From a phage, in sequence record OZ335959.1: a DNA stretch of 64,000 bases. The stretch is one strand, 5' to 3'. Under the pieces are notes generated by a model. The model had not been told where the DNA came from and searched no databases. It was given only the letters and a program-made list of their open reading frames with translations. Of this stretch, positions 1,662 to 50,908 are shown piece after piece (within the stretch, counting starts at the first letter, position 1; every line of letters begins with the position of its first letter). Both the position numbers and the translations under genes were made by a program.

Positions 1662-2122
1662 TAGTAAAGGTCCTCAGAGTAAAGTTCTTTTTCACTACCA
1701 CCACGTTCAATACGTACTTGTCCGGCGTAAGTTGCAATAATCATTGCTTCTTCACGTGTCCAATAATTACTATATTGGTCAATAAATCCTTGGTCATCAT
1801 CACAAACTTGTTGAGTAACTAATTGGGGTTTAACTACATCTAAAACTTCTGCCATATCTTTAGAATAATGACGAGCACCTGGAATAACAAGAGTTCGTCC
1901 ATCTTTTAATTTAAAACGATTGGCGGCACAAACAATTCGTCGTTGATACTTTTGGTTTTCGTCCCAATATGCGGTTTGCCAACAGATTTCAGGAACTTCA
2001 TCTAAAACATTTTGTTCGGTGTATTCACCACTGTAAGAAGCTAATTTAGCAGCCAAACTTTCTGGAGTCTCACGTGACAAAGCTTTATCTAACAGAGTTA
2101 AACGTTCTTTAAAAGTTTTCAT
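1661..2122 (-). CDS. Hypothetical protein, 153 aa
   Basis: Track ORF; stop/start overlaps with both neighbours. Confidence 0.55.
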
Positions 2123-2448
2123 TTAAACCATCCTTTAATACGCTGCCACAAAGTTTTCTGTTGTGCTTTGTTAACACCAATTGAGCGAATAACTGGTTGA
2201 GATTCCTGGAATTCTTTATAATCAGCAAGGTAAATTTCATAAGCTGAATCTGTAAAGGAACTTATCGCTGCCATAAAATTATTGCGAATACCTACTGGAG
2301 CATCTTTACTTTCACGAATAATCATGTATTTACCAGTCTTAATCTTTACAATAGTTCCAAGATAAGCTCCGTGGTACCAGATGTCCCACCCCTCTTGAGT
2401 GGGTTCTGCACAACGACGAAGTTCATTAACAATTTCTAACTTGTTCAT
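2119..2448 (-). CDS. Hypothetical protein, 109 aa
   Basis: Track ORF immediately downstream of motA on same strand. Confidence 0.55.
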
Positions 2449-2458
2449 TATTTATTCC

Positions 2459-3094
2459 TCACAGTTCAGATGCTACGGTGATTACTGCTTCAATGTTTTC
2501 TGCCGAGCGTTTAATGTCAAGATACACATTACCATTTTTAGCGATTTTACATGACATTCCGATATCAGTAAATTTCTGAATATGATGTTCCATCATTTTG
2601 TATCCAAAAATTCGCATATTTCCATTGTTGTTAATTTCAAAATTACGAATTCCGTGAGTGCGTTTTTCTAAAATAGCAAGATAGTTACTGCGGTAAGTTT
2701 CAACCTTTTTAAGAACAAATCCATTTTCATCTAAAAGTTTTAACATGAAGTCTTTATCTTCTTCCATATCGGAAGTAATCTCACGAGCTTTACGAGTTGC
2801 TCGTTTTTTCAGCAGTTCAGGAGCATTTTCCTGTGCGTATAAAGTTGCTGCATTTGAAATAATATCCTGAGCTTCGCCTGTGATGATTAATCCATCACCA
2901 GATTTCTCCACCAGGCCTTTTTTAATCAATACCCCAATATTACTATTAACTACTGCGTTACCTAAATCTGGATGCACCTCACGAACTTCTGCAGCTGTAA
3001 TGAAATCTTTCTTAGCAATGGTAATTAAAATCGCAGCAGTTTTTTCATTCAGAACATCGTTAGAAGCTTTGATGATGTAAGTTACTTTAGACAT
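2459..3094 (-). CDS. motA: Middle-transcription activator MotA
   Basis: 211-aa ORF MSKVTYIIKASNDVLNEKTAAILITIAKKDF... recognised as T4 MotA; exact T4 length. Confidence 0.93.
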   Translation of the reverse strand: MSKVTYIIKASNDVLNEKTAAILITIAKKDFITAAEVREVHPDLGNAVVNSNIGVLIKKGLVEKSGDGLIITGEAQDIISNAATLYAQENAPELLKKRATRKAREITSDMEEDKDFMLKLLDENGFVLKKVETYRSNYLAILEKRTHGIRNFEINNNGNMRIFGYKMMEHHIQKFTDIGMSCKIAKNGNVYLDIKRSAENIEAVITVASEL

Positions 3095-3135
3095 TTTCTA
3101 ATCTCCGTAATTCTGTATCAGTAGTTGATAGTTGT

Positions 3136-3165
3136 ATAGTACCACAGTATGCTTTGGTTGTAAAC
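3136..3165 (-). promoter_or_regulatory. Early promoter upstream of motA
   Basis: Minus strand GTTTAC, 18 bp, TACTAT with TGTGG upstream of -10 and A/T-rich UP region. Confidence 0.55.
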
Positions 3166-3185
3166 CGTTTTGTGAAAAAATTTTT

Positions 3186-3216
3186 GAAATAAAAAAGGGA
3201 GAGCCTCGGCTCTCCC
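3186..3216 (-). terminator. Rho-independent terminator after gene 52 / small ORF
   Basis: Minus strand GGGAGAGCC-GAGG-CTCTCCC hairpin followed by TTTTTTATTT. Confidence 0.6.
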
Positions 3217-3221
3217 TAAAA

Positions 3222-3371
3222 TTACTGCATGACTGTGATAACTGTCATGATAACACGTTGAATTCCGAATGCAAGAAGACCTCCTGCTACGGCTGGAACA
3301 ACACCTAAACCCGCTAGTAAAATGCTACCAGATACTAATGCCGCGCTTGTAATACCAATGAATGGACTCAT
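3222..3371 (-). CDS. Small hydrophobic protein, 49 aa (below track length cutoff)
   Basis: ATG overlaps gene 52 TGA (ATGA); translation MSPFIGITSAALVSGSILLAGLGVVPAVAGGLLAFGIQRVIMTVITVMQ is one or two TM helices. Confidence 0.45.
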   Translation of the reverse strand: MSPFIGITSAALVSGSILLAGLGVVPAVAGGLLAFGIQRVIMTVITVMQ

Positions 3372-4696
3372 TTGATTTCCTCTAAATCTTTAGTGTATTC
3401 GGTAACTACATCAGTAGTTTTCCAATATTCGTTTTCTTCTTTCTTAGCTTTAGCTTCTTCAGCAAGTTTCTTTGCTTCGTCGGAAGTCATATGAAAAATA
3501 TTCATTCCAACTAGTTTATCAACATAAGAAGAATACATATCAATTTTAGAAAGTTCTTCGGTCAGTTCTTTGCGAGTTTTACCTTGTACAACAATTTCAC
3601 CTGAAATCACTTTCTTAATGAAATGCGCCTTGGCAAAGGCTAAACGAAATGCTGATTCAGTTTCTTTGATTTTGTTATCAATTCGTTTTTGGACATAAGT
3701 TTTACGAACTTCAACGAAGTCTTTGATTAAATCAACTACGTTATCGTAAACTTGTAGCTTTCCTTTCTCATTAATAACGGTAATATTCTGGGAACGACGC
3801 TCAATCAACCCGAAGTCTTTCATAATTTTTGCATGGCGTTCTTCTTCGTTATCACTCAAAGAGTATTCTTTGCGGAATTTAACTTTGAAGCCAAAGCCAT
3901 GCTCACCACAAGCATCATCCCACGTAATGAAGCCTTTATCTTCAAGCGGGTCTAAGATTTTACTCACATAAGTTTCACGATCATACTTATACGGAATCTC
4001 AGTGATATGCATTTGAGTTCGTGAAGTAAACTTGTACGTTCCACGAATTTCATATTGACCGTCAATTTCAACGACTTCACCACGAAATTCTGGGAATTCT
4101 ACCTTAGGTTTAGTTACTTTCTTTCCTTGAAGAGCTTGCAATACAGCTTTCTTGACAGAAGAAACACTATGAGGAAGAATGTAAGTTGCATAACCAGTTG
4201 CAATACCGGAAACACCATTAAGAAGAACAGTAGGAATAATAGGCAAATAGAAAGCAGGCGGAATGTGTTCTTTATCTTGATGTACCGGAGCATATTCAGT
4301 ATCTTTATATACATTATAGAAATTTTTACTTACACGAGCAAAAATATAACGACTTGCCGCTGCTTTTTGAACGGTACGAGAACCAAAGTTTCCTTGACCA
4401 TCTAACAAAGGAAAGTTATTATTCCAAGTGTTAGCCATCAAAGCACCTGCGTCTTGCGCAGAGTTTTCACCATGATGATATCCAAGGTCTGCTACACCGC
4501 CTGCAATAGAAGCGAGTTTGTGAAACTTATCTTTATTTCCTCGTGCCAAATCAAGAGCTCGAGCAATAACAAATCGTTGAACTGGCTTAAATCCATCAAT
4601 CATATTTGGGATAGCACGATTTTCAACCGTGTACATAGCATAAGCCAATGCTTCATTATCAATGATACTTTTTAAATCGCGATTATTCAGTTGCAT
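3368..4696 (-). CDS. 52: DNA topoisomerase II medium subunit gp52 (GyrA-like)
   Basis: 442-aa ORF MQLNNRDLKSIIDNEALAYAMYTVENRAIPNMIDGFKPVQRF... with type II topoisomerase A-subunit N-terminal motifs; T4 gp52 length. Confidence 0.93.
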   Translation of the reverse strand: MQLNNRDLKSIIDNEALAYAMYTVENRAIPNMIDGFKPVQRFVIARALDLARGNKDKFHKLASIAGGVADLGYHHGENSAQDAGALMANTWNNNFPLLDGQGNFGSRTVQKAAASRYIFARVSKNFYNVYKDTEYAPVHQDKEHIPPAFYLPIIPTVLLNGVSGIATGYATYILPHSVSSVKKAVLQALQGKKVTKPKVEFPEFRGEVVEIDGQYEIRGTYKFTSRTQMHITEIPYKYDRETYVSKILDPLEDKGFITWDDACGEHGFGFKVKFRKEYSLSDNEEERHAKIMKDFGLIERRSQNITVINEKGKLQVYDNVVDLIKDFVEVRKTYVQKRIDNKIKETESAFRLAFAKAHFIKKVISGEIVVQGKTRKELTEELSKIDMYSSYVDKLVGMNIFHMTSDEAKKLAEEAKAKKEENEYWKTTDVVTEYTKDLEEIK

Positions 4697-4700
4697 AAAT

Positions 4701-4841
4701 TTACCATACTAGTGAATGTAGTGCCATAATAACATCAGAAATGAAAAGCACGACTTGAATTAATCCGAACATTACTCCATAATATAGTGCTACCAATAAA
4801 GTAGCAAGGGCTAATGAATAGCCCAAGATTTTCTTAATCAT
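4701..4841 (-). CDS. Small membrane protein, 46 aa
   Basis: Hand-translated MIKKILGYSLALATLLVALYYGVMFGLIQVVLFISDVIMALHSLVW; start overlaps stop of upstream small ORF. Confidence 0.4.
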   Translation of the reverse strand: MIKKILGYSLALATLLVALYYGVMFGLIQVVLFISDVIMALHSLVW

Positions 4842-4992
4842 TAGTAGATAACAACACAAATGTTAAATATGCACACATACCCTGGGCTAAAGCTTGTGAA
4901 AACACACTGCTAGCATCGATACAGATAGTTAAAACACATGCTACTATCCAACAAATAAATGAAATAACTCCTAATAATTTTGCGATATTCAT
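4834..4992 (-). CDS. Small membrane protein, 52 aa (ac-like by position)
   Basis: Hand-translated MNIAKLLGVISFICWIVACVLTICIDASSVFSQALAQGMCAYLTFVLLSTND; lies between stp and 52 as T4 ac does. Confidence 0.4.
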   Translation of the reverse strand: MNIAKLLGVISFICWIVACVLTICIDASSVFSQALAQGMCAYLTFVLLSTND

Positions 4993-4999
4993 ATTTTCC

Positions 5000-5080
5000 T
5001 CACTGGCGTCCGAAGACGCCTTTGGTTTTAAGATTGTTACGATAGAACTGCATCACATGTTCGTTATGGAAATTACTCAT
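5000..5080 (-). CDS. stp: Stp peptide, 26 aa (modulator of host EcoprrI / PrrC anticodon nuclease system)
   Basis: Hand-translated [26 protein letters not shown], identical to T4 Stp as I recall it; not in the track because under 60 aa. Confidence 0.8.
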
Positions 5081-5246
5081 ACACACCACACATTTTGCAT
5101 AAACGTTCAAAACAGATAAATCCGCCACCTACACACATCACGACAGCCACATTATCATTAAGAGGTAGACCTAAAGCCATAAAGATTCCGGTCACTGTGA
5201 ATAAGGCTAAAACTAATAGGTAACCCATTACAAATAGAGCTTTCAT
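5073..5246 (-). CDS. Small membrane protein, 57 aa
   Basis: Hand-translated [57 protein letters not shown]; ATG overlaps ndd stop (TAATG). Confidence 0.4.
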
Positions 5247-5701
5247 TAGTATGCCTGTAAAACAAATTTAAAGTTATCAGCCAACATACGATTCATTTCT
5301 TCAAGTGTTTGATACTCAGAATGATGATTACGAGTAAACGCTAAAGCTAACTGACCTTTTCCAAATCCTGTCGTCAAAGGTTTCATCTTAGAAGCAGGAA
5401 GATAAAATACTGTATATGGAACATTATTATTTGCAATAGTACGCGCAAGCTGAGACCGACGCTGACGAATATGACTTAGAACTGCACTGAATCCTTGCTT
5501 AGAACGCTGATTACCTACATAAAATCGTGCAGATACACACGGACTATCAAATGGACCACCAAATTTACTCACTAAAAAGTAAAATCCAGGTGTAGATAAA
5601 ATGTCTTTATGTGGAGTTCCAAAAACCCATTCACCGCCCTTGATTGTACCAATAACAGTAGCACCTGCATTATTCAAATCAGTAACAGTCATGTATTTCA
5701 T
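5246..5701 (-). CDS. ndd: Nucleoid disruption protein Ndd
   Basis: 151-aa [28 protein letters not shown]...; T4 Ndd length and position. Confidence 0.8.
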
Positions 5702-9021: not shown

Positions 9022-11199
9022 TTAGGCCGCAAGGGCCTTCATAGTTTTAGCGATTTGGGAAACTTCATCATCACTTAAAGAGTTACGATAACCGATGAAG
9101 TCGGAAACGATACGGAATTTCTTGGTAAACTCAGCAACCATTTTATCACTATTTTTTGAAGCATTATTTGATAGTACATCAAAAAGATTAGTTACTGTCC
9201 AGATGTCATGACCGATGGTACCTTTTCCACCGTTGAAATATATACCCTGCAATGAACTAACCATATTACCAAGGCGAGTATATTCTTCAGAAACTTCATC
9301 TACACTGAAGTACTTCATCATAAAATCGAGTTCAGGATACTTAATAATTTTATCAATATATCGTTTAGCTGAACTTGAATAACCTACATACTTATCATAA
9401 TCTACAGCATCAAAAGCATCTACATATAAATCACGCAGAGTTTCAAAAATACATTGGCACTGACCAAGTTCTTTTACCTTTTTCTGCAAAAGCGGACGAA
9501 TAACATAAAATTCATTAATGCCAATAAGATTAGCCATACGAGTCAAAATACTCGTAGATGGATTACAAAGCGATGTAGTGCCATCCATAGAGAAAATATC
9601 AGAACGATGCATGTATGCTACGTAACCAGTAATTTCATCTGCTTCTGATGTGAGCGTAAACAGTTCCTCTTTTTCCCAGCGCCCGTCTTTAATTTCAAAC
9701 TTAAATGCAGTAGCAGCTTTAGGACGAGGAGCTTTACTTTTAACTGCCTTCGGAATATAACTTTTAACTAAAGCTTCAATTTCTGACAAATAATGAATGT
9801 TAACTTCATCACTTTCAAACATTGCCATAATATCAGGAAGTAAATCAATCTGCGATTCTACTTCCGGATTAATAAACAGAAGACGCTCATTATGATGAAT
9901 ATTTAAGGCGTTATTAAATTCACTATCATCTAATGCATGTGCTAATCCACGGACAATATTAACACGATTTTTAATATTATCAATAACGATATTGATTTTT
10001 GTTGTATTAATACCAAACAGACGATAACTTGATGCAACGGCTGAAGTTTCATGACTTTGCTTAATGCGTTTCAGTCGAGGGTCAAGATTTACTTCATACA
10101 CAACTCCTGCATTGCATAGTTTACTATCAGGTTCAAACATGCTTTGCATCTTCTTATATGACAGATTTTTAGTCGTAAATTTGACTGAATTACTAATCAT
10201 ATAATCTCGAGCAGAATATCCCATCTTCATCAATTCACGGTATGTATGACGAGGAGATGTAGATTCTTTAAATCGTTTTACATCTTCATTGAATGCCTTC
10301 TCACTAAGCTCTTTAACACGCTCAATAATATTTTTACGAGTACGATCATCTAATGAAAGAGCTTCGCGTGATGGAGCAATATCAAGTGAACCCATTGGAA
10401 ACTTAATGTAATTCACTTCATTGCGGATGCTTAACCAGTTACGGTCTCTAATAACACCATCGATAGGATAAACAATACCACCATAGATAGCATATAATCC
10501 ACCACGATCTGGCCAGTATCTTTCTGGATTTACGCCGTAATAATCATCAAAATCCGGAAAATAATCAATTTCGCGGTCAAGACCATTAATGATAGCTAAA
10601 TCTTTGAATGGTCGCATGATATAAGAAACTTCATAAGCAAAGTTTCTAAAGTCTTTTTCTTCAACTGGAACTACAATTTCAATACCAGTTTTATCATCTG
10701 GATCCATTTCTTTTACGAATGTAGGTTTAATTTGCGGACCATCGCCATCCATGTAAGCTACATAACCACGAATTTCACCTTTATGATACGAAGTAATACT
10801 AAATGTATCAGTATAACTAAACGGAGATTTAGAACCTAAACCAAATCCACCAATGAAATCGTTAGATTCAGCCTTAGATGAACTAAAGTATGAATTATAC
10901 AACCCAGGAGAATTATCATCACCCTGAATATCAAAATCGCTCATACCCGGACCAAAATCTCGACAAACAAATCGCGGATCTAATCGTCCTGGAACTTGAA
11001 TGATAAATTTTTCAGGATTTCCATTGAGAGCATGGGCATCAATCATGTTGGTAATCAATTCACGGACTACTGCGCGAATCTTGTTTGTATACAAATCAGA
11101 TGACAGAATTTTAAATACTTTAGGAGATGCTGTGATGCTAAATGCTTTTGACTTAGAACCATTACCAAGAATTGTTTCTTTTTCAGTGGTGATAATCAT
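9022..11199 (-). CDS. rIIA: rIIA protein (GHKL ATPase-like N-terminal domain)
   Basis: 725-aa [60 protein letters not shown]...; exact T4 rIIA length. Confidence 0.93.
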
Positions 11200-11209
11200 A
11201 ATTTCCTCA

Positions 11210-11413
11210 TTAATTCATATTGCGTTTAATAACTTCAGCAACTTCTAGTAGTTCATCTTTAGTTGCGGTGTCGGATTGAATTTTATCTCTAATATCCTTA
11301 AAGCGGTTTTTAAACTCTTCGGCTTCTCCCATATCGAAAAAGCGTTGAATGATTCTATATTCTCGATGAACTGCTTTATCAAAAAGTTCTAAATTTACTT
11401 TATATGATTTCAT
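11210..11413 (-). CDS. Hypothetical protein, 67 aa (rIIA.1 position)
   Basis: Track ORF between gene 39 and rIIA with its own promoter. Confidence 0.55.
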
Positions 11414-11438
11414 TTCAATATCCTCATTTGCCCAATTA

Positions 11439-11468
11439 ATTATACCACATCCTTGTGGTAAAGTAAAC
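11439..11468 (-). promoter_or_regulatory. Early promoter upstream of rIIA.1/rIIA
   Basis: Minus strand GTTTAC, 18 bp, TATAAT with TGTGG extension; -35 overlaps gene 39 stop. Confidence 0.6.
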
Positions 11469-13288
11469 TATTGGCTCATCCATTCTTTACGAAGGTCAGC
11501 ATTATCTCCCATGAGCATTTCAAAAAGCTCTTTCCAGTTCTCAGGAAGTTTAACAACATCATATACTGGGTTTTGAATCATCTCACGATATTCAGATTTT
11601 TCCAAAGAGCCAAGTCCCTTAATATAACGGATGCTATGTTTAGGTAGAGCATCTTTGGCACTCTCATATTCAGCGACTGTATAAAACCATTCTTGTTTTT
11701 TACCGACCTGAGCGATGATTACAGGAGTTTTGACGAAGCGAATTCTTCCTTGTTCAAACAGTTCTGGCCAATTGCTAAAAAATCCGAGCAGAGAAGGATA
11801 AATGCTTCCTAGACCATCATGGTCAGCATCGGTCATAATAGCAATATTATGATAATTCAAGTTTTCAGCTTTTTCACCAAGAACTAATCCAGTGATTGCG
11901 CAAATATCAAACAGTTCTTTGTTTTTAAGCATATCGGCATAAGACATACCCCAGCTATTAAGAACTTTACCACGCAATGGATAACCACCATGAAGTTCTT
12001 TATCACGAACATCAATAAGATATCCGATAGCAGAATCACCCTCAGTCAAGAAAAGAGTAGTGTCAGCGTCTTTACCGCAAAGATTCGCTTTAATATGTTT
12101 ATGAACCTTAGCTTTAGAAGCCTTTTTAGCTGCTTTAGTTTCAGCTGCTTTTTCTGCAGCCAATTTACGAGCCAAAGCAGCTTCAATAATTGGCATTAAA
12201 ATTGCTTCATTATTTAAAATAGCACGTGAAATCTTTTTAGCATCAAGCTGAATATGACTACGAATTTCACCAAATGGAGAAGTCAAACGCTCTTTAGTCT
12301 GAGAATCAAATCGCATGTTTTTCATATCACGAACAAACATAACGATAGTCAAACATTCTTTAACACGTGCTTTAGTTACATCAATTTTGAACTTGCGTTT
12401 GATTTGTGGAATAAGGTCTTCACAAATATCATCCATAACGCAGTCAATGTGATGGCCACCATTCTTAGTATGAATGTTATTAACGTATGTTAATTGACGA
12501 AAACCATCAGGTGAACGACCAACCGCAATAGAACAATTTTCTTGTTCTTGAACAATAGCATGCTCATCATATTGGCGTGCATATTTCTTAAAATTACCCT
12601 GAACCTTTTTACCATTAAAGGTAAATTGAATATCAGGATAAACTACTGCAAGTGTCTGGAGACGATCCAGTGTAATGTCAAGATAAACTTGAGACAGCTC
12701 ATTAGTTTCAAATGACATAAAATCAGGAATGAAAGTAACACGAGTTCCTTTCCATTTTCCGGGAATATCTTCCCATGATTTATTTTCCATGCCATTTGAA
12801 CAACGAACTACAATATTATTTTGACCGTCGCCAGTTTCACCGACAAACATCACAGAAAAAATGTTAGTTAAACTAGAACCAACACCGTTCATACCGCCAG
12901 TGACGCGTTCTTTATCATCGCCGAAGTTACCACCTGCTTTTGGAATAGTCCAAGCAGCAACAGGACCAGGAATTTCTTCACCAGTAGGTGTTTTAACCAT
13001 CGCTTGTGGAATACCGCGACCGTTATCTTCAACTGTTACCTGATTATTTTTAATGGTAACATTAATTTTATTTGCGAATTTAAACTTAGTACGAATACCT
13101 TCATCTACTGAGTTATCGATAATTTCATCAATAAGCTTAACAAGACCAGGTACATACTGAACACTTTCCCATTTACCAAACAGAAAGCGCTCATGCATTT
13201 CATTAGCGGAAGAGCCAATGTACATGCCGCTACGCTTTTTGATATGTTCAATATCGCTCAGAATTTTAATTTCATTCTTAATCATCAC
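11468..13288 (-). CDS. 39: DNA topoisomerase II large subunit (GyrB-like), unsplit 39+60 form
   Basis: 606-aa single ORF MMIKNEIKILSDIEHIKKRSGMYIGS... with GHKL ATPase and TOPRIM motifs; no interruption equivalent to the T4 39/60 split. Confidence 0.9.
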   Translation of the reverse strand: MMIKNEIKILSDIEHIKKRSGMYIGSSANEMHERFLFGKWESVQYVPGLVKLIDEIIDNSVDEGIRTKFKFANKINVTIKNNQVTVEDNGRGIPQAMVKTPTGEEIPGPVAAWTIPKAGGNFGDDKERVTGGMNGVGSSLTNIFSVMFVGETGDGQNNIVVRCSNGMENKSWEDIPGKWKGTRVTFIPDFMSFETNELSQVYLDITLDRLQTLAVVYPDIQFTFNGKKVQGNFKKYARQYDEHAIVQEQENCSIAVGRSPDGFRQLTYVNNIHTKNGGHHIDCVMDDICEDLIPQIKRKFKIDVTKARVKECLTIVMFVRDMKNMRFDSQTKERLTSPFGEIRSHIQLDAKKISRAILNNEAILMPIIEAALARKLAAEKAAETKAAKKASKAKVHKHIKANLCGKDADTTLFLTEGDSAIGYLIDVRDKELHGGYPLRGKVLNSWGMSYADMLKNKELFDICAITGLVLGEKAENLNYHNIAIMTDADHDGLGSIYPSLLGFFSNWPELFEQGRIRFVKTPVIIAQVGKKQEWFYTVAEYESAKDALPKHSIRYIKGLGSLEKSEYREMIQNPVYDVVKLPENWKELFEMLMGDNADLRKEWMSQ

Positions 13289-13337
13289 TTATCCTCGTTT
13301 GGTTTCGGGAATATTATACTCCGGTAATCATAAAGCT

Positions 13338-13355
13338 AAAGGCCCGAAGGCCTTT
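13338..13355 (-). promoter_or_regulatory. Intercistronic stem-loop (AGGCC-TTCG-GGCCT)
   Basis: Perfect hairpin overlapping the stop of the lipoprotein gene, upstream of a TATAAT-like element before gene 39. Confidence 0.45.
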
Positions 13356-13627
13356 TATTTAAAACGGATAGTCGAATCCTTGAAGAATAGACCAGAACAT
13401 ACGGTTCCTTCTACTTTCTGCCCGGTAGGTCCAATAGCACGAAATCCAGTATGTTGGAAATCATTTTCAGAGCAACCGAACCAGTTATATCCAGTGATTT
13501 CAATATTAGTAAAACCACTTGAAGACAAAACTTTGGTTGCATTATCAGCATCAGTACATCCTGCTAAAGACACTGCTAATACTAATGCTGCGATAGAACG
13601 ATTAATATATTTCATAATTTCACTCAA
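13355..13627 (-). CDS. Small lipoprotein, 90 aa
   Basis: Signal peptide plus lipobox: MSEIMKYINRSIAALVLAVSLAGC followed by TDAD. Confidence 0.6.
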   Translation of the reverse strand: MSEIMKYINRSIAALVLAVSLAGCTDADNATKVLSSSGFTNIEITGYNWFGCSENDFQHTGFRAIGPTGQKVEGTVCSGLFFKDSTIRFK

Positions 13628-13997
13628 ATTTAATGGCTTGAAGAAGACTAATAATTCTCAAGCGACTTCTTTCATCTTTAACCGTAAATGAAAGAGGGTC
13701 ACCAGATTTCATAGTGATAGTGCATTCAAAATCAAAATCTTCGGGAACTTCTTCGAAGAAGTCAAATTCTTCATCATATATTAGAACATTACTCTGAAAA
13801 CTGTGAAGAATTTTTCCATCATTTCCAGATGCTGTACTAATCATTGTAACGTTATTACCTTTCATATCTTCAACGATAAATTCGCTTGTAGATATTACGG
13901 CATTAATAGAACCATTCCTATAAATAGCAGAAAATAGATATTTCTTTTCTTCACCTTCACGAACACGATATTTCTTACCGATTTTAAACATAATCAC
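13620..13997 (-). CDS. Hypothetical protein, 125 aa
   Basis: Track ORF; overlapping start/stop with neighbours. Confidence 0.55.
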   Translation of the reverse strand: MIMFKIGKKYRVREGEEKKYLFSAIYRNGSINAVISTSEFIVEDMKGNNVTMISTASGNDGKILHSFQSNVLIYDEEFDFFEEVPEDFDFECTITMKSGDPLSFTVKDERSRLRIISLLQAIKFE

Positions 13998-14170
13998 CCT
14001 TTAAGTAAGTCGTAAAATCCACCATTCACATGCTTAGGAGCAGAAGGCCGACGAGTAGACAGACGATGACATTTAGGACAAACATCATTTTCTCGTTCAG
14101 AAATCTTTTTAATTTTTTCATATTCATGCCCGCAATCTTCGGATTGGCATTTATAATCATACATTGGCAT
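13994..14170 (-). CDS. Zinc-ribbon protein, 58 aa (FmdB-like CxxC...CxxC)
   Basis: Hand-translated MPMYDYKCQSEDCGHEYEKIKKISERENDVCPKCHRLSTRRPSAPKHVNGGFYDLLKG; MPxYxYxC...CPxC pattern of FmdB-type zinc ribbons. Confidence 0.55.
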   Translation of the reverse strand: MPMYDYKCQSEDCGHEYEKIKKISERENDVCPKCHRLSTRRPSAPKHVNGGFYDLLKG

Positions 14171-14172
14171 AA

Positions 14173-14592
14173 TTATTCCTTAAAGTGTGCTTTCAACATC
14201 TGATACAAGGACCATGCCTGTTCATTATTTTCAATAGTAACTTTCATGATAGGAAATTCTGTGAAATCTTCTATTTGTTCTTGCTCTTCCTGCTCTTGCT
14301 CTTCAGATGCCTGATATGGATTTTCAACTTCATCAAAGAACCCAGCTTCGTTAGTAGAGAGCCAGATAAAGTTTTCGTCAAGGATATCACCATGTGTTGC
14401 ATATCCAACTGTGCCAGTAGATGTCACAATTTTAGTAGGACGACCAAGATGGTCAACATCTAAAATTTTAAAAGGATGCATACCTAAACGACGTGCATAG
14501 ATTCCGTTATCAGTATGGTCTTTAATAAAATTTTCTTGAGCTTGTTTATTTTTAAATTGATACCATTTATTAACTTCAAATTTAATAGCCAT
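14173..14592 (-). CDS. Acidic protein, 139 aa (positional equivalent of T4 goF/comC-alpha)
   Basis: Track ORF; [10 protein letters not shown] acidic stretch; size and position similar to T4 goF. Confidence 0.5.
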
Positions 14593-14983: not shown

Positions 14984-15481
14984 TTATGCACAGCGGGCTT
15001 TGCTATAGTGTTTAATCCAACTTTCGGGAATGACTTTGTATGTTCCTAAAAATACAGCATTGTACAACTTAACACCATCTTCTACCCACTGATCAGTAAT
15101 GTATGCACACATAGCGCGAGTACGGTGTTTTTGAACAACCCCTTCCTCATCTTCAGTAAATTCGAATTCATAAGGAGCAACGAACTTAATAGCTTGACCG
15201 AGTTTCCACTTAAAGTCTACACCTACGTGCGAAGTATCAATCGTTTCAATTCCTTTAGCAGGAACAGCTTTCAAAAACGCAGACTCAAGAAATTTCGCAC
15301 GAACATAGCCAAACTGAGGTTTAGACTTTCCATCTTTAGGAATGATACGCACTTTTACTTCAGAATCTTCATCTTTAACGCCGTGTTTAAGCTGAATGCT
15401 TACAATTTCAACCAATTTTCCTGCTGCTTTAGAACGGGATTTATCAGATACACGAGCAATTTCACCAATATTAATAATCAT
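14984..15481 (-). CDS. MotB-like protein, 165 aa
   Basis: Position and size match T4 motB; shares a C-terminal motif with the next ORF. Confidence 0.55.
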   Translation of the reverse strand: MIINIGEIARVSDKSRSKAAGKLVEIVSIQLKHGVKDEDSEVKVRIIPKDGKSKPQFGYVRAKFLESAFLKAVPAKGIETIDTSHVGVDFKWKLGQAIKFVAPYEFEFTEDEEGVVQKHRTRAMCAYITDQWVEDGVKLYNAVFLGTYKVIPESWIKHYSKARCA

Positions 15482-15557: not shown

Positions 15558-16100
15558 TTAATTCAAAATAGCTACCACCGCACTACGGGGTACTACACTA
15601 AAATCACCTGCATGAACAACGTTCAGAAGTTCAACACCATCTTCAATCCATTGGTCTGTTACCCAACCACAGACCGAAATAAATGGGGTCTTAATAGCTA
15701 CAGCACGAGTTAGAAGGTCAGTAGGATCGCATTCTTGGAAGAGGATAAGCTCTGCTTCAAAGACTATAGTTTTAATTACTTCATCATTATCTAAGCGTTG
15801 TGCTCGAATCACATAAGCTTTATTCTTATCATACCAATTACTTTTTGAAAAACTTTTAACCACAAACTCGCCTTCACCAAAAACACTAGTCAATGCTTTA
15901 TAACCCAAACTTAGTTCAGTAGTTTTAATTTCAGTTTCAACCAGTTTGTAGATTTTGCCAATTTCAATGGTCCGAGCAGTCATAAAGGTTTCCTTAATTT
16001 CCAGTGGTTTAACAGGGCATACATAAGTGCTTACAACATCAAAATCAATCAGTTTAGCTACCGGATTTGGAGTGTATTCAGGATTATAATTAAATTTCAT
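15558..16100 (-). CDS. MotB paralogue, 180 aa
   Basis: C-terminal CGWVTDQWIEDGVELLNVVHAGDFSVVP aligns with CAYITDQWVEDGVKLYNAVFLGTYKVIP of the 14984-15481 product. Confidence 0.55.
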   Translation of the reverse strand: MKFNYNPEYTPNPVAKLIDFDVVSTYVCPVKPLEIKETFMTARTIEIGKIYKLVETEIKTTELSLGYKALTSVFGEGEFVVKSFSKSNWYDKNKAYVIRAQRLDNDEVIKTIVFEAELILFQECDPTDLLTRAVAIKTPFISVCGWVTDQWIEDGVELLNVVHAGDFSVVPRSAVVAILN

Positions 16101-29231: not shown

Positions 29232-29594
29232 TTAAAAGAATTTAAATTTTTTCTTTGACCTTTTATTAAATGCATCTTGTAGTTGCATTGTAATACATTT
29301 TTCTACATGAGGAGCTAACTCAGCTTTTCTTTCTTGGTCAAGAACAGCAAAGTCCATTACGACTTTTCCATCAACCCAATCTAATTTTGTCACATACACA
29401 ATGTGTGTAGAACCGTCTTCTAGTTTAATGACAATCTCCTGGATAACATTTTCCATGGCAGATTTAATTATCTTAAGAGATTCATTAAAAAGACGTTCTT
29501 TTCTTTCTTCTTCCCCCTCCGAAGAGGGGGATTCATCGATAATTTCTAGATCTAAATCTAAATCATCTTTATTCATTAAATTCTTCCATATCAC
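29232..29594 (-). CDS. 40: Acidic protein, 120 aa (gene 40 position)
   Basis: Track ORF between uvsX and 41, as T4 gene 40. Confidence 0.55.
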   Translation of the reverse strand: MIWKNLMNKDDLDLDLEIIDESPSSEGEEERKERLFNESLKIIKSAMENVIQEIVIKLEDGSTHIVYVTKLDWVDGKVVMDFAVLDQERKAELAPHVEKCITMQLQDAFNKRSKKKFKFF

Positions 29595-30750
29595 TTAACT
29601 GATCTAGGTCAGTTTCTAAATCAGCTGCTGATTTACTTTTACTTTCTGGAGATTTAAATTTTTCAACCTTTGAGTTAATCAATTCATCAACTTCAGCTTC
29701 AACAATTTCATTACTATCAATAGCACCTAACTGATAAGCGCGTTTAATAGCATCTCGGAATGGCTGATGCTTAAATAAAGGACCCCAGAATGTAGTGCAA
29801 TTGGTATCTTTTGCACGCCAAGATTTTTCTTCGCGAATCATCTCGCCGGTTTCTTCGTCAAGAAATTCACGAGCATACCAGCCATTTTTAGGTTTTACCA
29901 CAAATCCTAATTCAAGAGCCATATCTAACAATCCAGAATAAGGATCGATGCCACCGTCAAATTTAACATCAATAAAGAATTTACTTTTTTCTTTAACGGT
30001 ACGAGATTTTTCTACATTTAGAACAAATTGATACCCCTGAAGATCAGAACCATCTTTAATCTGGCGCTTACCGATAATGAATACAGTATCAGCCGAATAC
30101 ATTACGCCTGTACCACCTGTCATCACGGTTTTACTAAACATTTCAATTGTTTCAATTGTATGGTTAACCGCAACACACGGAATGTTTTTAATACTAAAAT
30201 AAGGAGTAACAATACGAAATAATGACTTCAGCGATTTAGCACGAGTCATATCTGCCACAGATTTTTCATTCAAGGCATCTTCCGTTTCTTTCTTAGAAGC
30301 CATATTACCGATTGAGTCGATGAATACAATAACTTTTTCACCACGCTCAATAGCTTCAAGCTGATTCACCATATCAATTTTCAGTTGTTCAACTGACTGG
30401 ATTGGGGTATGAATTACTCGTTCCGGGTCAACTCCCATGGATCGCAAATAAGCGGGAGTAATACCAAATTCGCTATCATAGAATAGACATACCGCGTCAG
30501 GATATTTGTTCAAATACGCCGCAACCATAGTCAAAGACATATTTGATTTAAAGTGTTTAGAAGGACCTGCAAAAATGGTTAAACCAGACTGCATACCACC
30601 GTCAATCGCACCTGAAATAGCGATATTAAGCATTGGGATTTTTGTACGGATTACATCCTTTTCATTAAAGAATTTAGATGTAGTCAGTTCAGCAGTCATT
30701 TTAGAAGTGGAAGCTTTAATCAAACGGGATTTTAAATCTGCAATAGACAT
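29569..30750 (-). CDS. uvsX: UvsX recombinase (RecA/Rad51 family)
   Basis: 393-aa ORF MSIADLKSRLIKASTSKMTAELTTSKFFNEKDVIRTKIPMLNIAISGA... with Walker A GPSKHFKS. Confidence 0.93.
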   Translation of the reverse strand: MSIADLKSRLIKASTSKMTAELTTSKFFNEKDVIRTKIPMLNIAISGAIDGGMQSGLTIFAGPSKHFKSNMSLTMVAAYLNKYPDAVCLFYDSEFGITPAYLRSMGVDPERVIHTPIQSVEQLKIDMVNQLEAIERGEKVIVFIDSIGNMASKKETEDALNEKSVADMTRAKSLKSLFRIVTPYFSIKNIPCVAVNHTIETIEMFSKTVMTGGTGVMYSADTVFIIGKRQIKDGSDLQGYQFVLNVEKSRTVKEKSKFFIDVKFDGGIDPYSGLLDMALELGFVVKPKNGWYAREFLDEETGEMIREEKSWRAKDTNCTTFWGPLFKHQPFRDAIKRAYQLGAIDSNEIVEAEVDELINSKVEKFKSPESKSKSAADLETDLDQLSDMEEFNE

Positions 30751-30827: not shown

Positions 30828-31676
30828 TTAATCAACTGCTATTGGATGAATAGCATTAAACTTATGAAACGCTTCTGATTTTTCTTTGCGCGAAACACAC
30901 ATGCGAAGAACCTTTAATGGCTCGTCTTCTTCACCCAACGATTTTCTCTTTTCAATATTTGATGTTTTCCAACGAGCTTGCTCTGGAAACTCTCTATTGA
31001 TTTGCTCAAGAGCTCTATTATGTTTTGAATTACTACGAATTGAACTACATCCGCCAGGAGCTTGCGCTTTTCCAGATACAACCAGATATTTGAACAAGGC
31101 CAAATGCGGATAACCTTGATTAATTAAATTGAGAAATGCATACATATCTTCGCATAAATCAATTTTTCCATACCCAATTTGTTCTGTTGTAAGTTTTCCA
31201 AGGTCATACCAAGTATTCGTGAATCCATATGAATTTTCACGATAATTACCCCAAGATGAAGTAATTTTAAAAATTGGTAAACGAGCATGACCATGATAAT
31301 ACCCGCAATCCATGGCATCTTCAACGTATTGAATCAATTCATAGAACTGTTCACGGGTTAATTGATTAATTTTATCTACGCAGCGACGATCATCTTTCTT
31401 TCGCATTGAACTCATACGAATAGTAGTATCATCATCAATCATCCAAATTCGTTGACCTGCATACATTTCAGTAATTGCTTTGCGAGTGCCAGCAATTCCA
31501 TTAACATCATCGGGAATAGTTATAATTTTGGCTCTAGACCCGTAAGCGTCATAATAAGCTTTTTCTTCGTGTTCACGTACTACAATATGAGGTTCATAAT
31601 CAGTCGGAAACATATCAAGGGCAGAAACTGCCCCTACGCGTTGATAGCTTGGAATTACGAATTGAATCATTTCCAC
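30828..31676 (-). CDS. Glycosyltransferase, GT-A-like with DxD motif (candidate beta-glucosyl-HMC alpha-glucosyltransferase)
   Basis: 282-aa ORF with RIWMIDDDTT; occupies the uvsX-42 interval where T4 has beta-gt, but is not T4 beta-gt. Confidence 0.6.
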   Translation of the reverse strand: MEMIQFVIPSYQRVGAVSALDMFPTDYEPHIVVREHEEKAYYDAYGSRAKIITIPDDVNGIAGTRKAITEMYAGQRIWMIDDDTTIRMSSMRKKDDRRCVDKINQLTREQFYELIQYVEDAMDCGYYHGHARLPIFKITSSWGNYRENSYGFTNTWYDLGKLTTEQIGYGKIDLCEDMYAFLNLINQGYPHLALFKYLVVSGKAQAPGGCSSIRSNSKHNRALEQINREFPEQARWKTSNIEKRKSLGEEDEPLKVLRMCVSRKEKSEAFHKFNAIHPIAVD

Positions 31677-32407
31677 TCACCATTATAATCTTTTTTCGCA
31701 ATATGAGTTTCGCCAGTTTTCCACCAATGGTCAACCAAATAAAAATGACGGGAATACACATGAAGGCTTCCGACATTCCATATAATGGAACCTGCTTTAT
31801 ACTGACGAGTTGAATCACCTGCATTCAAATCAGATACTAATTTATCTAGTACGTATTTTTGCCATGCATAATCATTACGGAATCCGAAGACTACGTCATT
31901 TGAACGCATGCTTACTACTGCATTGACTTTCTTATCACGAATCAGGTACTGTACTGTATTCGTACACATGAAATCTGACATACCGTCTTTATTGTAGTCA
32001 AACTGCATGGATGGACGAGTATAAATCATGATACCACGTCGAGAATCAGGATTTTGACCAAGCTCAGCTAAACACATATCATACTGGGCATAGTTATCTT
32101 CTGACCAGATGGCCCAACCATAATTCGAGTTAATTTCGCCTTTAGAAGATGCTACCTGTTGCCAAATCTTCGGTGTTTCACCCGGAATATCTTTAACAAA
32201 CAAACTTTTAGATTTATACCATTCAAGTTCACGCTGAATGTATTCATCATTAAGAGCGCCAAAAATAAAAGGTTCATCTGCTACAAATGATGCGCCAATA
32301 ATTTCAATAGTTTTAACACCAGTTTTATCAATTACGAAATCTTTTTCCTTTAACGCAATTCCCAAATGAAGACGAGTTTCTTCAACTGTCAAAGAGTCAT
32401 TAATCAT
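31667..32407 (-). CDS. 42: dCMP hydroxymethylase gp42
   Basis: 246-aa ORF MINDSLTVEETRLHLGIALKEKDFVIDKTGVKTIEIIGASF...; thymidylate-synthase-like fold; T4 gp42 length. Confidence 0.92.
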   Translation of the reverse strand: MINDSLTVEETRLHLGIALKEKDFVIDKTGVKTIEIIGASFVADEPFIFGALNDEYIQRELEWYKSKSLFVKDIPGETPKIWQQVASSKGEINSNYGWAIWSEDNYAQYDMCLAELGQNPDSRRGIMIYTRPSMQFDYNKDGMSDFMCTNTVQYLIRDKKVNAVVSMRSNDVVFGFRNDYAWQKYVLDKLVSDLNAGDSTRQYKAGSIIWNVGSLHVYSRHFYLVDHWWKTGETHIAKKDYNGEWK

Positions 32408-43062: not shown

Positions 43063-43080
43063 AAAGGGCCGAAGCCCTTT
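43063..43080 (-). promoter_or_regulatory. Stem-loop at 3' end of alpha-gt (GGGC-TTCG-GCCC)
   Basis: Perfect tetraloop hairpin overlapping the alpha-gt stop. Confidence 0.45.
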
Positions 43081-44281
43081 ATTTTGTAATAATGTCAAAC
43101 TGTTCTTTAAAGCAGAAGCTTGAATCTTGATGCTGATACAAAAATTCATAAGCTTTTTCGCGTTCACGGTCATAAAGAGCTCGGTCAGATGACAGTTCTT
43201 TAATACGCTCAAATGTTGATTCCATGTCATTTTCATCAAACCAAACGATACCGCTATCATGAGAAATTAACGGAGTATTATCAACACGGAATTTTAAATT
43301 TTCGCCAGTAGATTTCCAAAATACTGGAATTGTTCCACATGCACCAAGCTCGAGATGAGTATATTCTAAAGAACGTTGTAGATATTTTTTGTCCAACTTA
43401 CTCAGCTGATAACCAAATCCGGATTTACTCATGCGTTCAAGCATTTCGCTATTTACATAACGGTCAAGAATTTGCGTTGGCAAATTAGGAGCAATTTTAA
43501 TTTGATCTACTTGATGAAGACGATAATACTCGTATGGAATTCCTTTTTCTTTAATAGGAATGAACGCTGGAGAACGTTCCAGACCTTCCATAATAGTACT
43601 TAATCCCGCAGGTTTAAGATGTTTTTCGTGAAAATCAAACATCTGATAAAAACCTTTCCATGTAGTCGTACGACCGATCCAACGGTTGACATTCATATTA
43701 ATTTCAGAAACATCTTTCCAGTATGTTGATCGAACCTTCGCAATATCCATAGGAGGCTGAAAGTTGTATACAGTCGGTGCTTCTTCAATATCATCAAACA
43801 GAGAAACGGTTTCTGGATACCATTCTTTCATTAAAACTTTATTAAAATCACCATTATCAGAATGACTAAAAATAACATCAGCTCGACGAACAGTTTCTTC
43901 TAATCCCAAATTTCGACGTAAAGAAAGAGAAGAATGGTCATGTTGATAAACTACAACACGAACCGAAGGTTTAATGTTATCAATAATTTTTTTATAGTTA
44001 TTAATAGTGTCTTCTTCGACTGAAGTAGCAGGAACTGAATTGATAATTAGAATATCACAATCATTTACCAGCTTAAGTGTTTTATCGTATTCTTTTGCCA
44101 ATAAAACCGGAATTGAAAATGATTTATAATCATGCGCGCAATTACGGGTAAATGATTTATCTTTAGCATAAACCAAAGTTACTTCATGACCATTTTTAAT
44201 AAACCAATCACGTTGCTCAAGAGAAAATTTAGTTACGCCACAACCTTCAAGACCTCGAGCCATAAAAATGCATACTTTCAT
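43079..44281 (-). CDS. agt: DNA alpha-glucosyltransferase
   Basis: 400-aa ORF MKVCIFMARGLEGCGVTKFSLEQRDWFIKNGHEVTLVYAKDKSF...; T4 alpha-gt length and position after gene 47. Confidence 0.88.
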   Translation of the reverse strand: MKVCIFMARGLEGCGVTKFSLEQRDWFIKNGHEVTLVYAKDKSFTRNCAHDYKSFSIPVLLAKEYDKTLKLVNDCDILIINSVPATSVEEDTINNYKKIIDNIKPSVRVVVYQHDHSSLSLRRNLGLEETVRRADVIFSHSDNGDFNKVLMKEWYPETVSLFDDIEEAPTVYNFQPPMDIAKVRSTYWKDVSEINMNVNRWIGRTTTWKGFYQMFDFHEKHLKPAGLSTIMEGLERSPAFIPIKEKGIPYEYYRLHQVDQIKIAPNLPTQILDRYVNSEMLERMSKSGFGYQLSKLDKKYLQRSLEYTHLELGACGTIPVFWKSTGENLKFRVDNTPLISHDSGIVWFDENDMESTFERIKELSSDRALYDREREKAYEFLYQHQDSSFCFKEQFDIITK

Positions 44282-48623: not shown

Positions 48624-49094
48624 TTAATCATGTTTCCACACCCCATCGGTATTTGACCAAAGTCGCTGATTATCTGATCCTCGCCACAGCTTTTTGGTCG
48701 GAAGATTTTTCTCATACTTCCCATCAATAATAACATCAACATATTTAAGCATTTCTAGTTGTTTAATATCTTCAAACTTATATCCTGTCCACAACCAAAT
48801 GCTTTTATTTGGATAAAGATTTTTTACTGTTTGAACCACAGAGTGAATAACATCTCGGTTATCAGGATAGAGAGGGTCTCCTCCAGTTATAGTTAATCCT
48901 TCTATATAATCATTATTCAAACATTCAATTAATTGTTCCAGTGTTTCACCAGTGAATGGAACGCCATTTCTAGCATTCCATGTTGATTTATTATAACACC
49001 CTTCGCATTTATGCAAACAACCTGTAACGAAAAGAACGACCCTGCATCCAGGGCCATTCACAAAATCGCAAGGATAAAATCTATCATAATTCAT
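48624..49094 (-). CDS. nrdG: Anaerobic ribonucleotide reductase activating enzyme NrdG (radical SAM)
   Basis: 156-aa ORF with radical-SAM cysteine cluster CLHKCEGCYN; T4 NrdG length. Confidence 0.88.
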   Translation of the reverse strand: MNYDRFYPCDFVNGPGCRVVLFVTGCLHKCEGCYNKSTWNARNGVPFTGETLEQLIECLNNDYIEGLTITGGDPLYPDNRDVIHSVVQTVKNLYPNKSIWLWTGYKFEDIKQLEMLKYVDVIIDGKYEKNLPTKKLWRGSDNQRLWSNTDGVWKHD

Positions 49095-50908
49095 TGGTGT
49101 TTAACCCTATGCATGATTTCTTTATTTTTGCCGAGATTAAATCCGCGTTCATTCGGATTTCCCAAATAACCACATGTTCTTCTTATTGTGTTCATCTTTT
49201 TAGGATCAGTTTCTCCACAAATAGAGCAAACAAATCCGTTTTCAGTAGGAGTCATTTCATGGGTACTTCCACACGTAAAACATTTATCTACTGGCATGTT
49301 AACACCAAAATAATCTAAATGTTGTGCAGCATAATCCCATACAGCCTCAAGACCTTTTAAGTTATTTTTCATATCAGGAAGTTCAACATAAGAAATGTGA
49401 CCACCTGTCGCAATGAAATGATATGGTGCTTCTCGAGAAATCTTTTCAAACGGAGTAATATTTTCTTCTACTGAAACGTGGAAACTATTAGTGTACCATC
49501 CTTTATCAGTAACATCTTTTACACTTCCATATTTTTCGGTATCAAGTTTACAGAAGCGATAGCACAGGTTTTCAGCAGGAGTAGAATACAAACTAAAAGC
49601 AAAACCGGTTCTTTCAGTCCACTGCTTAAGATGAGTATTCATTTTAGTTAAAATTTCTTGTCCAATATCACGACCGACAAGAATATTCAATTCGTGAATA
49701 CCAATGTATCCTAGGGACACTGAACTTCTACCGTTTTTAAATAACTCAATTATGTCGTCATCAGGTTTAAGACGAACCCCGAATGCACCTTCTTGGTAAA
49801 GAATAGGAGCAACAGTCGCTTTAACTCCTTTTAAGGAACTAATTCTACACATCAATGCTTCAAAACACAAATCCATTCGTTCATTGAACAATTCGGCAAA
49901 TTTCTGTTCATTGAATTGTGTTCCAATATAAGAATCTAACGCAATGCGAGGAAGATTCAGTGTTACAACGCCAAGATTATTACGTCCATCAAGAATTTCA
50001 TTACCAGTCGAATCTTTCCATACGCTTAAGAAACTACGGCAACCCATCGGAGAAACAGGAATAGATGAACCGGTGATAGCTTTATTGTTCTTAGCTGAAA
50101 TAATATCAGGATACATTCTTTTACTTGCGCACTCTAAAGCAAGCTGCTTAATATCATAGTTCGGGTCATCTTTATAAAGATTAACACCTTCTTCAACGAA
50201 CATAACAAGTTTAGGGAAAATAGGAGTTATCCCATCGCGACCAAGACCTTTAATACGATTTTTCAGAATTGCTTTCTGAATCATTCGTTCAGTCCAGTCA
50301 GTTCCCGTACCAAATGTAATTGTTACAAAAGGCGTTTGTCCATTTGAACTAAAGAGAGTATTTACTTCATATTCATAAGCTTGGAATGCATCGTATACGT
50401 CTTTTTCTGTTTTAGATTGGGCGTAATTCAACGCATCAGCGATTTGCCATTTTTCTGCATCCTCAATGTGTTTTGCATAGGTGCGTTTAACATAAGGAGA
50501 AAGTACTTTATCTACATTCGCAAAAGTCGTTCCGCCATATTGATGAGAAGCAACCTGTGCAGTAATTTGTGCCATAATTGCAGTAGCAACGCCGATTGAT
50601 TTAGGAGTTTCAATCTGCGCATTACCGAGCTTAAATCCATTCTCAAGCATTCCTTTTAAATCTACTAAACAGCAATTAGTAAATGGAAGAGCAGGCGAAT
50701 AATCAATATCATGGAAATGAATAATTCCGCTTTCATGCGCTTTCATAATAAAAGACGGGACCATATTTTTGGCAATGTGTTTAGACACAATACCAGCCAT
50801 AAGGTCCCGTTGAGTTGGAAAAACACGAGAATCTTTATTAGCATTCTCGTTTAAAAGGTCTTTATTAGTTTTATGAATCAATCCTTCAATTTCTTTTTCA
50901 ATTGTCAT
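49091..50908 (-). CDS. nrdD: Anaerobic ribonucleoside-triphosphate reductase NrdD
   Basis: 605-aa continuous ORF; C-terminal zinc site CFTCGSTHE...CSICG and glycyl-radical motif RRTCGYLG. Confidence 0.93.
   Translation of the reverse strand: MTIEKEIEGLIHKTNKDLLNENANKDSRVFPTQRDLMAGIVSKHIAKNMVPSFIMKAHESGIIHFHDIDYSPALPFTNCCLVDLKGMLENGFKLGNAQIETPKSIGVATAIMAQITAQVASHQYGGTTFANVDKVLSPYVKRTYAKHIEDAEKWQIADALNYAQSKTEKDVYDAFQAYEYEVNTLFSSNGQTPFVTITFGTGTDWTERMIQKAILKNRIKGLGRDGITPIFPKLVMFVEEGVNLYKDDPNYDIKQLALECASKRMYPDIISAKNNKAITGSSIPVSPMGCRSFLSVWKDSTGNEILDGRNNLGVVTLNLPRIALDSYIGTQFNEQKFAELFNERMDLCFEALMCRISSLKGVKATVAPILYQEGAFGVRLKPDDDIIELFKNGRSSVSLGYIGIHELNILVGRDIGQEILTKMNTHLKQWTERTGFAFSLYSTPAENLCYRFCKLDTEKYGSVKDVTDKGWYTNSFHVSVEENITPFEKISREAPYHFIATGGHISYVELPDMKNNLKGLEAVWDYAAQHLDYFGVNMPVDKCFTCGSTHEMTPTENGFVCSICGETDPKKMNTIRRTCGYLGNPNERGFNLGKNKEIMHRVKHQ

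Follow-up and report, generated by a model that had tools for sequence, protein, structure and literature searches.

The GyrB-like large subunit of the T4 type IIA topoisomerase is split into genes 39 and 60, and gene 60 is read across a 50-nt coding gap by translational bypass. In the T4 reference record the two genes are parted by a 1117-nt insert that comprises a 43-aa C-terminal extension of gp39, mobA/60.1, a 30-aa N-terminal extension of gp60, a recoded homologous stretch and the 50-nt gap. The mobA sequence is a pseudogene plus 60.1 in this record and an intact gene of 272 aa in T4T. The same split gene 39/60, with MobA and bypass, also occurs in HY01, RB55, RB59 and others in addition to T4T. 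Comparison of MobA-bearing genomes with MobA-free ones, the latter termed "parental" targets of the MobA homing element, defined a 64-nt deleted region (bioRxiv 10.1101/2022.08.31.505936). According to the same preprint the element deletes these 64 nt, carries a recoded homologous region (DNA identity 67-81%) together with the bypass, and moves into T2; in the T4 clade 9 further nucleotides past the bypass are recoded. In T2, MobA is reported to nick the 64-nt segment, and in mixed infection the locus is reported to acquire the cassette (Bonocora et al. 2011, in the summary given by bioRxiv 10.1101/2022.08.31.505936); the nick is placed, approximately, ~20 nt upstream of the bypass (bioRxiv 10.1101/2022.08.31.505936). 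The unsplit state of the gene is also already in print (bioRxiv 10.1101/2022.08.31.505936; PMC11461880; PMC2988022). The enzymes of T2 and T6 have two subunits; the structure of T6 gp39 has been solved by cryo-EM (PDB 8ylu) and the holoenzyme has been purified and assayed (PMC11461880).

The locus described here lies in a stretch of 64,000 nt of phage DNA (OZ335959.1), referred to as the window. A first-pass annotation had described its topoisomerase large subunit as a single 606-aa ORF covering both T4 parts, followed directly by rIIA.1 and rIIA, and had regarded the phage as representing the uninterrupted state of the locus. The analysis below identifies the locus, almost certainly, as the Tequatrovirus gene 39 in its uninvaded, T2/T6-type "parental" form, without the MobA homing element.

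Gene 39 and its neighbours

The mechanical ORF list contains a 606-codon open frame that begins at GTG and occupies 11468..13288 on the minus strand. Stop codons make up ~7% of random triplets at the G+C content of 35.7%, so the probability of an open frame of this length arising by chance is ~7e-20. An in-frame TAA lies immediately 5' of the GTG at 13288, and the next codon, at 13285, is ATG. The gene and its putative ribosome-binding site are as follows:

11468..13285, minus strand: gene 39, the GyrB-like large subunit of the type IIA topoisomerase of the phage, unsplit, 605 aa and a stop codon
13292..13296, minus strand: GAGGA Shine-Dalgarno sequence, located 6 nt 5' of the ATG (13285) and just 3 nt 5' of the GTG (13288)

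The spacing of GAGGA, the start-context string GAGGATAAGTGATG common to the window, T4, T4T, HY01, T2, T6 and ime09, and the translated or annotated ATG starts (MIKNEIK) of the gene 39 protein in all four records checked (T4, T2, T6 and ime09) together indicate that the product is most likely 605 aa long and starts at the ATG. Initiation at GTG is permitted, and the mechanical ORF begins with this codon; nevertheless, a true start at 13288 with a 606-aa product is improbable, as GAGGA would then be 3 nt away rather than 6, the seven genomes that share this context include four whose protein starts at ATG, and the solved T6 protein begins MIKNEIK. The single open frame of the first-pass annotation is thus retained, and its length is reduced by one residue.

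The genes rIIA.1 and rIIA follow directly downstream on the same strand, as had been described, and the gene for the GyrA-like partner of gp39 is found in the same window, 7 kb away:

11439..11467, minus strand: promoter-like site TTTACT-17-TATAAT with an upstream TG (10/12 in a consensus scan; a pattern match only)
11210..11413, minus strand: rIIA.1, 67 aa, the next gene downstream of gene 39 (Pfam T4_RIIA1, E = 1.4e-33, profile positions 1-67 of 67)
9022..11199, minus strand: rIIA, 725 aa (ORF; annotated as rIIA at the match in close relatives)
3368..4696, minus strand: gene 52, the GyrA-like DNA-cleavage subunit that pairs with gp39, 442 aa (Pfam DNA_topoisoIV, E = 9.1e-77, aa 27-429)

The promoter-like site falls within the 54-nt spacer that separates gene 39 from rIIA.1; a scan of 11000..14200 for promoters and terminators gave site counts no higher than the shuffled expectation.

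A 5-kb query around the locus matched 727 phage records, nearly all of them from Tequatrovirus and its relatives, with Escherichia, Shigella, Yersinia and Salmonella as hosts. The best match was Shigella phage pSs-1 (98.1% over the full length). The gene is annotated as "DNA topoisomerase II large subunit" in close relatives and as "gp60plus39" in ime09.

Several other genes of the window were recorded in passing. The 39.1 homologue carries a lipoprotein-type LAGC box, and between 39.1 and 39.2, where the T4 record has no annotated gene, there is a 125-aa ORF that is RB69ORF005c-like in relatives. The nrdD gene consists of one 605-aa ORF, matched by Pfam along its full length, in which the Rfam scan detected no group I intron; nrdG adjoins it with no intervening gene. 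A 282-aa ORF of the TAGT glycosyltransferase family is located between uvsX and the next downstream ORF, and an alpha-glucosyltransferase is likewise present.

Comparison with T4 gp39 and gp60

The T4 proteins gp39 (516 aa) and gp60 (160 aa, joined over the 50-nt gap) were built from the reference locus (NC_000866, 1-7000), and residue alignments were numbered on the 605-aa window protein. Residues 1-473 align without gaps to T4 gp39 1-473, with 466 of 473 positions identical (98.5%). Residues 471-605 align to gp60 27-160 with identity at 128 of the 134 aligned positions; from gp60 residue 31 the match is essentially perfect, and gp60 31-160 corresponds to 476-605 ungapped. The C-terminal ~150 aa, on whose alignment with gp60 the earlier proposal depended, therefore do align, and one ORF spans both T4 parts. 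For the last 43 residues of T4 gp39 (FEEKEDGEW...RKNL) and the first 30 of T4 gp60 (MKFVKIDSS...SSS) the window has no equivalent; its protein runs ..GEKA-ENLNYHN.. without either extension peptide.

The same relationship is seen in the DNA. Two colinear blastn blocks connect the loci, the first pairing window 13500..11868 with T4 5543..3911 (96.2%) and the second pairing window 11803..11111 with T4 2793..2101 (98.3%). The breakpoints accordingly lie at window 11868 = T4 3911 and at window 11803 = T4 2793; between them are 64 nt in the window (11867..11804) and 1117 nt in T4 (3910..2794). Both the mobA segment of T4 (~1.07 kb) and the 50-nt coding gap are missing, which bears out the contrast drawn earlier between the split, bypass-containing T4 locus and an uninterrupted one here. 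These breakpoints agree with the boundaries of the element given in the preprint (bioRxiv 10.1101/2022.08.31.505936).

Domains and catalytic motifs

The gene 39 product contains all fold-defining and catalytic motifs of its family. The GHKL ATP-binding domain is recognised by Pfam HATPase_c (E = 2e-9, aa 48-150) and includes the N-box EIIDNSVDE (aa 54-62), DNGRGIP (aa 87-93) and GGMNGVGSS (aa 130-138). The transducer domain matches Pfam DNA_gyraseB (E = 1.5e-13, aa 251-385) and holds the QTK loop (aa 329-331) inside FDSQTKERL. The TOPRIM domain is unbroken, one polypeptide carrying both the EGDSA glutamate and the DxDxD cluster, and Pfam TOPRIM_C matches aa 520-605. The computed positions of the two TOPRIM motifs are:

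12029..12046, minus strand: TOPRIM motif TEGDSA, aa 414-419
11813..11833, minus strand: TOPRIM acidic motif TDADHDG, aa 485-491

TEGDSA is retained by gp39 in T4 and DxDxD is carried by gp60; the TOPRIM domain, unsplit in the window, is thus divided by the T4 insertion, and the T4 coding gap sits directly after DADHDG of the acidic motif. Among solved structures, the T6 gp39 chain 8ylu_C (605 of 605 residues covered, with more than 99% identity) and five further entries match over residues 1-605, and the engineered T4 gp39-gp60 fusion 8yo3 matches the window protein in two stretches.

The T4 reference gp39 departs from all other sequences examined next to the QTK loop, reading MKNMR-LIR-QTKE (LIR being codons 326-328) where the others have MKNMR-FDS-QTKE. 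At the DNA level the LIR version amounts to a -1/+1 indel pair, CGATTGATTCGTCAA versus CGATTTGATTCTCAA, and it occurs in only three of 476 records: X06220, AF158101 and the RefSeq copy of AF158101. A legacy sequencing error is the probable cause. LIR is also found in the T4 gp39-gp60 fusion chains that have been deposited (8yo3 and others), together with D355 in place of A.

The empty target site and the bypass position

The segment between the two blastn blocks is the part of gene 39 that the element replaces in T4-type phages:

11804..11867, minus strand: 64-nt stretch of gene 39, replaced by the MobA/bypass element in T4-type phages; empty and unrecoded here, encoding ..A/ENLNYHNIAIMTDADHDGLGS/I..
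11810..11815, minus strand: equivalent of the T4 take-off and landing sites, GGT (Gly491) then CTA (Leu492), in ..DADHDG/LGSIY..

With slashes marking the edges, the left edge and the segment read GGT GAA AAA GCT / GAA AAC TTG AAT TAT CAT AAT ATT GCT ATT ATG ACC, continuing GAT GCT GAC CAT GAT GGT CTA GGA AGC / ATT TAT CCT. The T4 counterpart starts as AAA GCG / C-terminal extension, mobA/60.1, N-terminal extension / AAC TAT GCG AAT GTC GCT ATT ATG and ends as ACA GAC GCA GAT CAC GAT GGA (TAG CCTTCGGGC...50 nt...TTGGA) TTA GGT TCT / ATT TAT CCT, the parentheses enclosing the coding gap.

The 64-nt stretch is identical to that of T2 at 63 of 64 positions, to that of T6 at 61 and to that of ime09 at 60, and has ~80% identity to the recoded T4 copy; the last 35 nt of the T4 insert before the coding gap are 80% identical to window 11848..11814. 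The T4 gap would fall between window 11813 and 11812. At the bypass-equivalent position (11815..11810), which the first-pass annotation had singled out for inspection, no GGA take-off codon, UAG, hairpin or gap is present, and the frame continues uninterrupted as GGT CTA GGA AGC. The locus serves as a clean empty-site reference for mapping the edges of the MobA/bypass element to the nucleotide (64 nt exchanged for 1117 nt).

Frequency of the unsplit gene

Two queries were used to estimate how common each form is. A 191-nt junction query (window 11740..11930), so short that the search tool could not span the 1.1-kb insertion with it, was covered at >=80% by 453 phage records, which have the uninterrupted junction. 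For the T4-type phages PD112, RB55 and CJY920, among the matches listed, only the flanks of this query were matched (coverage 31-34%). The 1117-nt T4 insert used as query found 43 phage records, several of which are duplicate or laboratory T4 entries. From 453 uninterrupted against 43 inserted records it follows that an unsplit gene 39 is the rule, present in some nine of every ten Tequatrovirus-level records, with T4 as the exception. The description of this phage as representing the uninterrupted state is correct for the present genome and has to be amended in one respect, namely that the state is not special to it.

These counts also bear on whether the single ORF could have come from a split gene collapsed in error during sequencing or assembly. 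Nothing specific supports such a reading, and its probability is practically nil: the same uninterrupted junction occurs in 453 independent phage records and is nearly identical in T2, T6 and ime09, and a collapsed gene, besides losing exactly 1117 nt, would need to have regained 64 nt of sequence of the T2 type.

Search for remnants of the element and history of the locus

The blastn blocks leave no room for mobA between the topoisomerase parts, and the search was extended to the whole 64 kb. T4T MobA (272 aa) gave a best tblastn E-value of 3.1, which is chance level; the gp39 C-terminal and gp60 N-terminal extensions gave no significant tblastn match across the 64 kb; and blastn-short with the bypass cassette returned chance 10-14-mers only over the same length. 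One of these, a 10-mer at 13351..13342, was rejected, as it is the GCCTTCGGGC tetraloop hairpin downstream of 39.1. When the window was scanned with Rfam for structured RNAs and introns, nothing reached the gathering thresholds, and a scan for tRNAs found none.

These results can be set against a possible history in which the MobA/bypass element entered the locus and was later lost again, through precise excision or through recombination with an uninvaded phage. The preprint describes lineages from which the endonuclease or the bypass has disappeared (bioRxiv 10.1101/2022.08.31.505936), and the flanks of gene 39 in the window resemble those of T4T and HY01, which bear the cassette (96-98%), as closely as those of T2, T6 and ime09. 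The flanks were further examined for co-conversion over 1754 nt, using sites that separate the cassette-bearing phages (T4T, HY01) from the naive ones (T2, T6, ime09). Only two diagnostic sites were found; the window is cassette-like at both, evidence of mosaicism through recombination, and flanks as mosaic as these carry no information on history. On the other hand, had the element been lost by an excision inside it, the recoded stretch, the extension peptides or the gap would still be there; no remnant of these was found, and the 64 nt are T2-like at 63 of 64 positions and only ~80% like the copy of the element. Replacement by a naive allele would give the same present state as a locus that was never invaded. 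Former invasion followed by reversion is accordingly very unlikely, and the uninvaded form, against which no feature of the sequence speaks, remains the preferred reading of the locus.

As for the present function of the site, the 64-nt stretch would be expected, by analogy with T2, to act as a MobA nicking and homing substrate in mixed infection. Co-infection with a MobA-positive phage would then convert the locus to the split, bypass-containing form, and the phage is predicted to gain the element under these conditions. Within the 64 nt the sole difference between the window and T2 is a synonymous C at 11831 (ACC versus ACT), ~18 nt upstream of the bypass-equivalent point. A change beside the presumed nick might conceivably alter sensitivity to MobA and make this a naturally resistant unsplit allele that escaped homing without a bypass. 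However, a far more diverged T4 copy without the 50-nt gap is still nicked by MobA (bioRxiv 10.1101/2022.08.31.505936). Resistance is therefore a highly improbable proposition, and loss of the cassette from the lineage through gene conversion is an equally minor alternative.

Comparison with known topoisomerases

The closest described relatives of this gene are unsplit. T2 gp39 (BBF63163.1, AP018813), proposed from the outset as a comparison, has 605 aa and is identical to the window protein at 604 of 605 positions, the sole difference being F70L. T6 gp39 (AXN58044.1, MH550421), also of 605 aa, is identical at 603 of 605 (D173T, Q526H), and gp39 of ime09, again with 605 aa, has one difference (A407V; DNA identity 97.5%). 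T2 and T6 share with the window the start context, colinearity over the full length, the uninterrupted junction and the gene order 39 - rIIA.1 - rIIA, and differ from it by point differences only, with ~4% synonymous DNA divergence. The flanks of ime09 contain 39.1, the RB69ORF005c-like ORF, 39.2, goF and cef in the same arrangement, and nothing structural differs.

The near-identity (603/605) to the solved and assayed T6 enzyme suggests what the activity and subunit stoichiometry should be. A single 605-aa polypeptide would supply the GHKL ATPase, the transducer with its QTK loop and the contiguous TOPRIM domain, and gp39 together with gp52 would form an ATP-dependent type IIA topoisomerase of the two-subunit type that relaxes DNA. 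As the MobA element is absent, there is no gene 60, no extension peptide and no 50-nt gap, and ordinary triplet translation suffices. The annotation is thereby fixed as one gene 39 of 605 aa with no gene 60.

The same order of GHKL ATPase, transducer and TOPRIM is found in cellular GyrB and ParE and in the N-terminal half of eukaryotic Topo II. Full-length matches of the window protein include human Topo II alpha and beta, yeast Topo II and ParE (E 1e-47 to 1e-59). The cellular B modules are distant in sequence, and the A subunit of the phage enzyme is a short protein of its own (gp52, 442 aa).

The comparison of the present locus with T4 is thus sound textbook biology and not a new finding. 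The unsplit state, known since T2 was compared with T4, is not special to this phage, which, like the great majority of T4-like phages, has an unsplit topoisomerase large subunit.

The gp39 sequence of the T4 reference

DNA and protein comparison of the T4 reference (NC_000866, 4318..4377) with the window (12275..12334) revealed a discrepancy in gp39. The T4 reference reads MKNMR-LIR-QTKE, while the window, T2, T6, ime09, T4T and HY01 read FDS-QTKE, the difference arising from a compensating -1/+1 indel pair in the T4 reference DNA adjoining the QTK loop of the transducer domain. The LIR version is probably a legacy sequencing error, as it is found in only 3 of 476 phage records (X06220, AF158101 and NC_000866). 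The chains of the T4 gp39-gp60 fusion in PDB (8yo3 and others) contain LIR, together with D355 instead of A.

The mobA region (T4 reference L001, 2971..3767; T4T L006, 1711..2529; HY01 L005) also differs among cassette-bearing phages. It is annotated in the T4 reference as two pieces, a short 'mobA' pseudogene and '60.1', and in T4T and HY01 as a single intact MobA of 272 aa. The T4 reference insert is 11 nt longer (1117 nt) than those of nearly all other full-length cassette-bearing records among the matches listed (1106 nt).

Other genes of the window

48624..49094, minus strand: nrdG
49091..50908, minus strand: nrdD, a single uninterrupted ORF of 605 aa (Pfam NRDD, 1-562 of 562)
30828..31676, minus strand: 282-aa ORF, Pfam TAGT (TET-associated glycosyltransferase), E = 7e-10
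43079..44281: clear alpha-glucosyltransferase
15558..16100, minus strand: 180-aa ORF, Pfam motB match confined to the C terminus (aa 142-175)
14984..15481, minus strand: 165-aa ORF

The genes nrdG and nrdD overlap by 4 nt, and there is therefore no gene between them; no group I intron was detected by Rfam anywhere in the 64-kb window. The TAGT ORF, flanked by uvsX (29569..30750) and the next downstream ORF (31667..32407), is a candidate that may encode a second hydroxymethylcytosine-sugar transferase. The adjacent 180-aa and 165-aa ORFs have in common a similar C-terminal motif, WV(E/T)DQWxEDGVxL(Y/L)N, and look like paralogous MotB-tail proteins.

Region upstream of gene 39

13335..13352, minus strand: GGCCTTCGGGCC hairpin followed by TTT, directly downstream of 39.1
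13355..13615, minus strand: 39.1 homologue, 86 aa counted from ATG
13620..13997, minus strand: 125-aa ORF between 39.1 and 39.2

The 125-aa ORF, for which a Pfam search gave no match, has counterparts named RB69ORF005c/RB32ORF005c-like in ime09 and T6, whereas the T4 record has a gap of about 100 nt between 39.1 and 39.2 with no annotated gene. It is another presence/absence polymorphism adjoining gene 39. The length of the 39.1 homologue is that annotated from ATG in T6 and ime09, compared with 65 aa in T4; its N terminus, MKYINRSIAALVLAVSLAGC, is a signal of the lipoprotein type and contains the lipobox LAGC. The hairpin is followed, upstream of gene 39, by a TATAAT-containing stretch. This hairpin shares its CUUCGG-type stem-loop motif with the beginning of the coding gap in T4 gene 60, which explains the spurious 10-mer match of the bypass query in the window.
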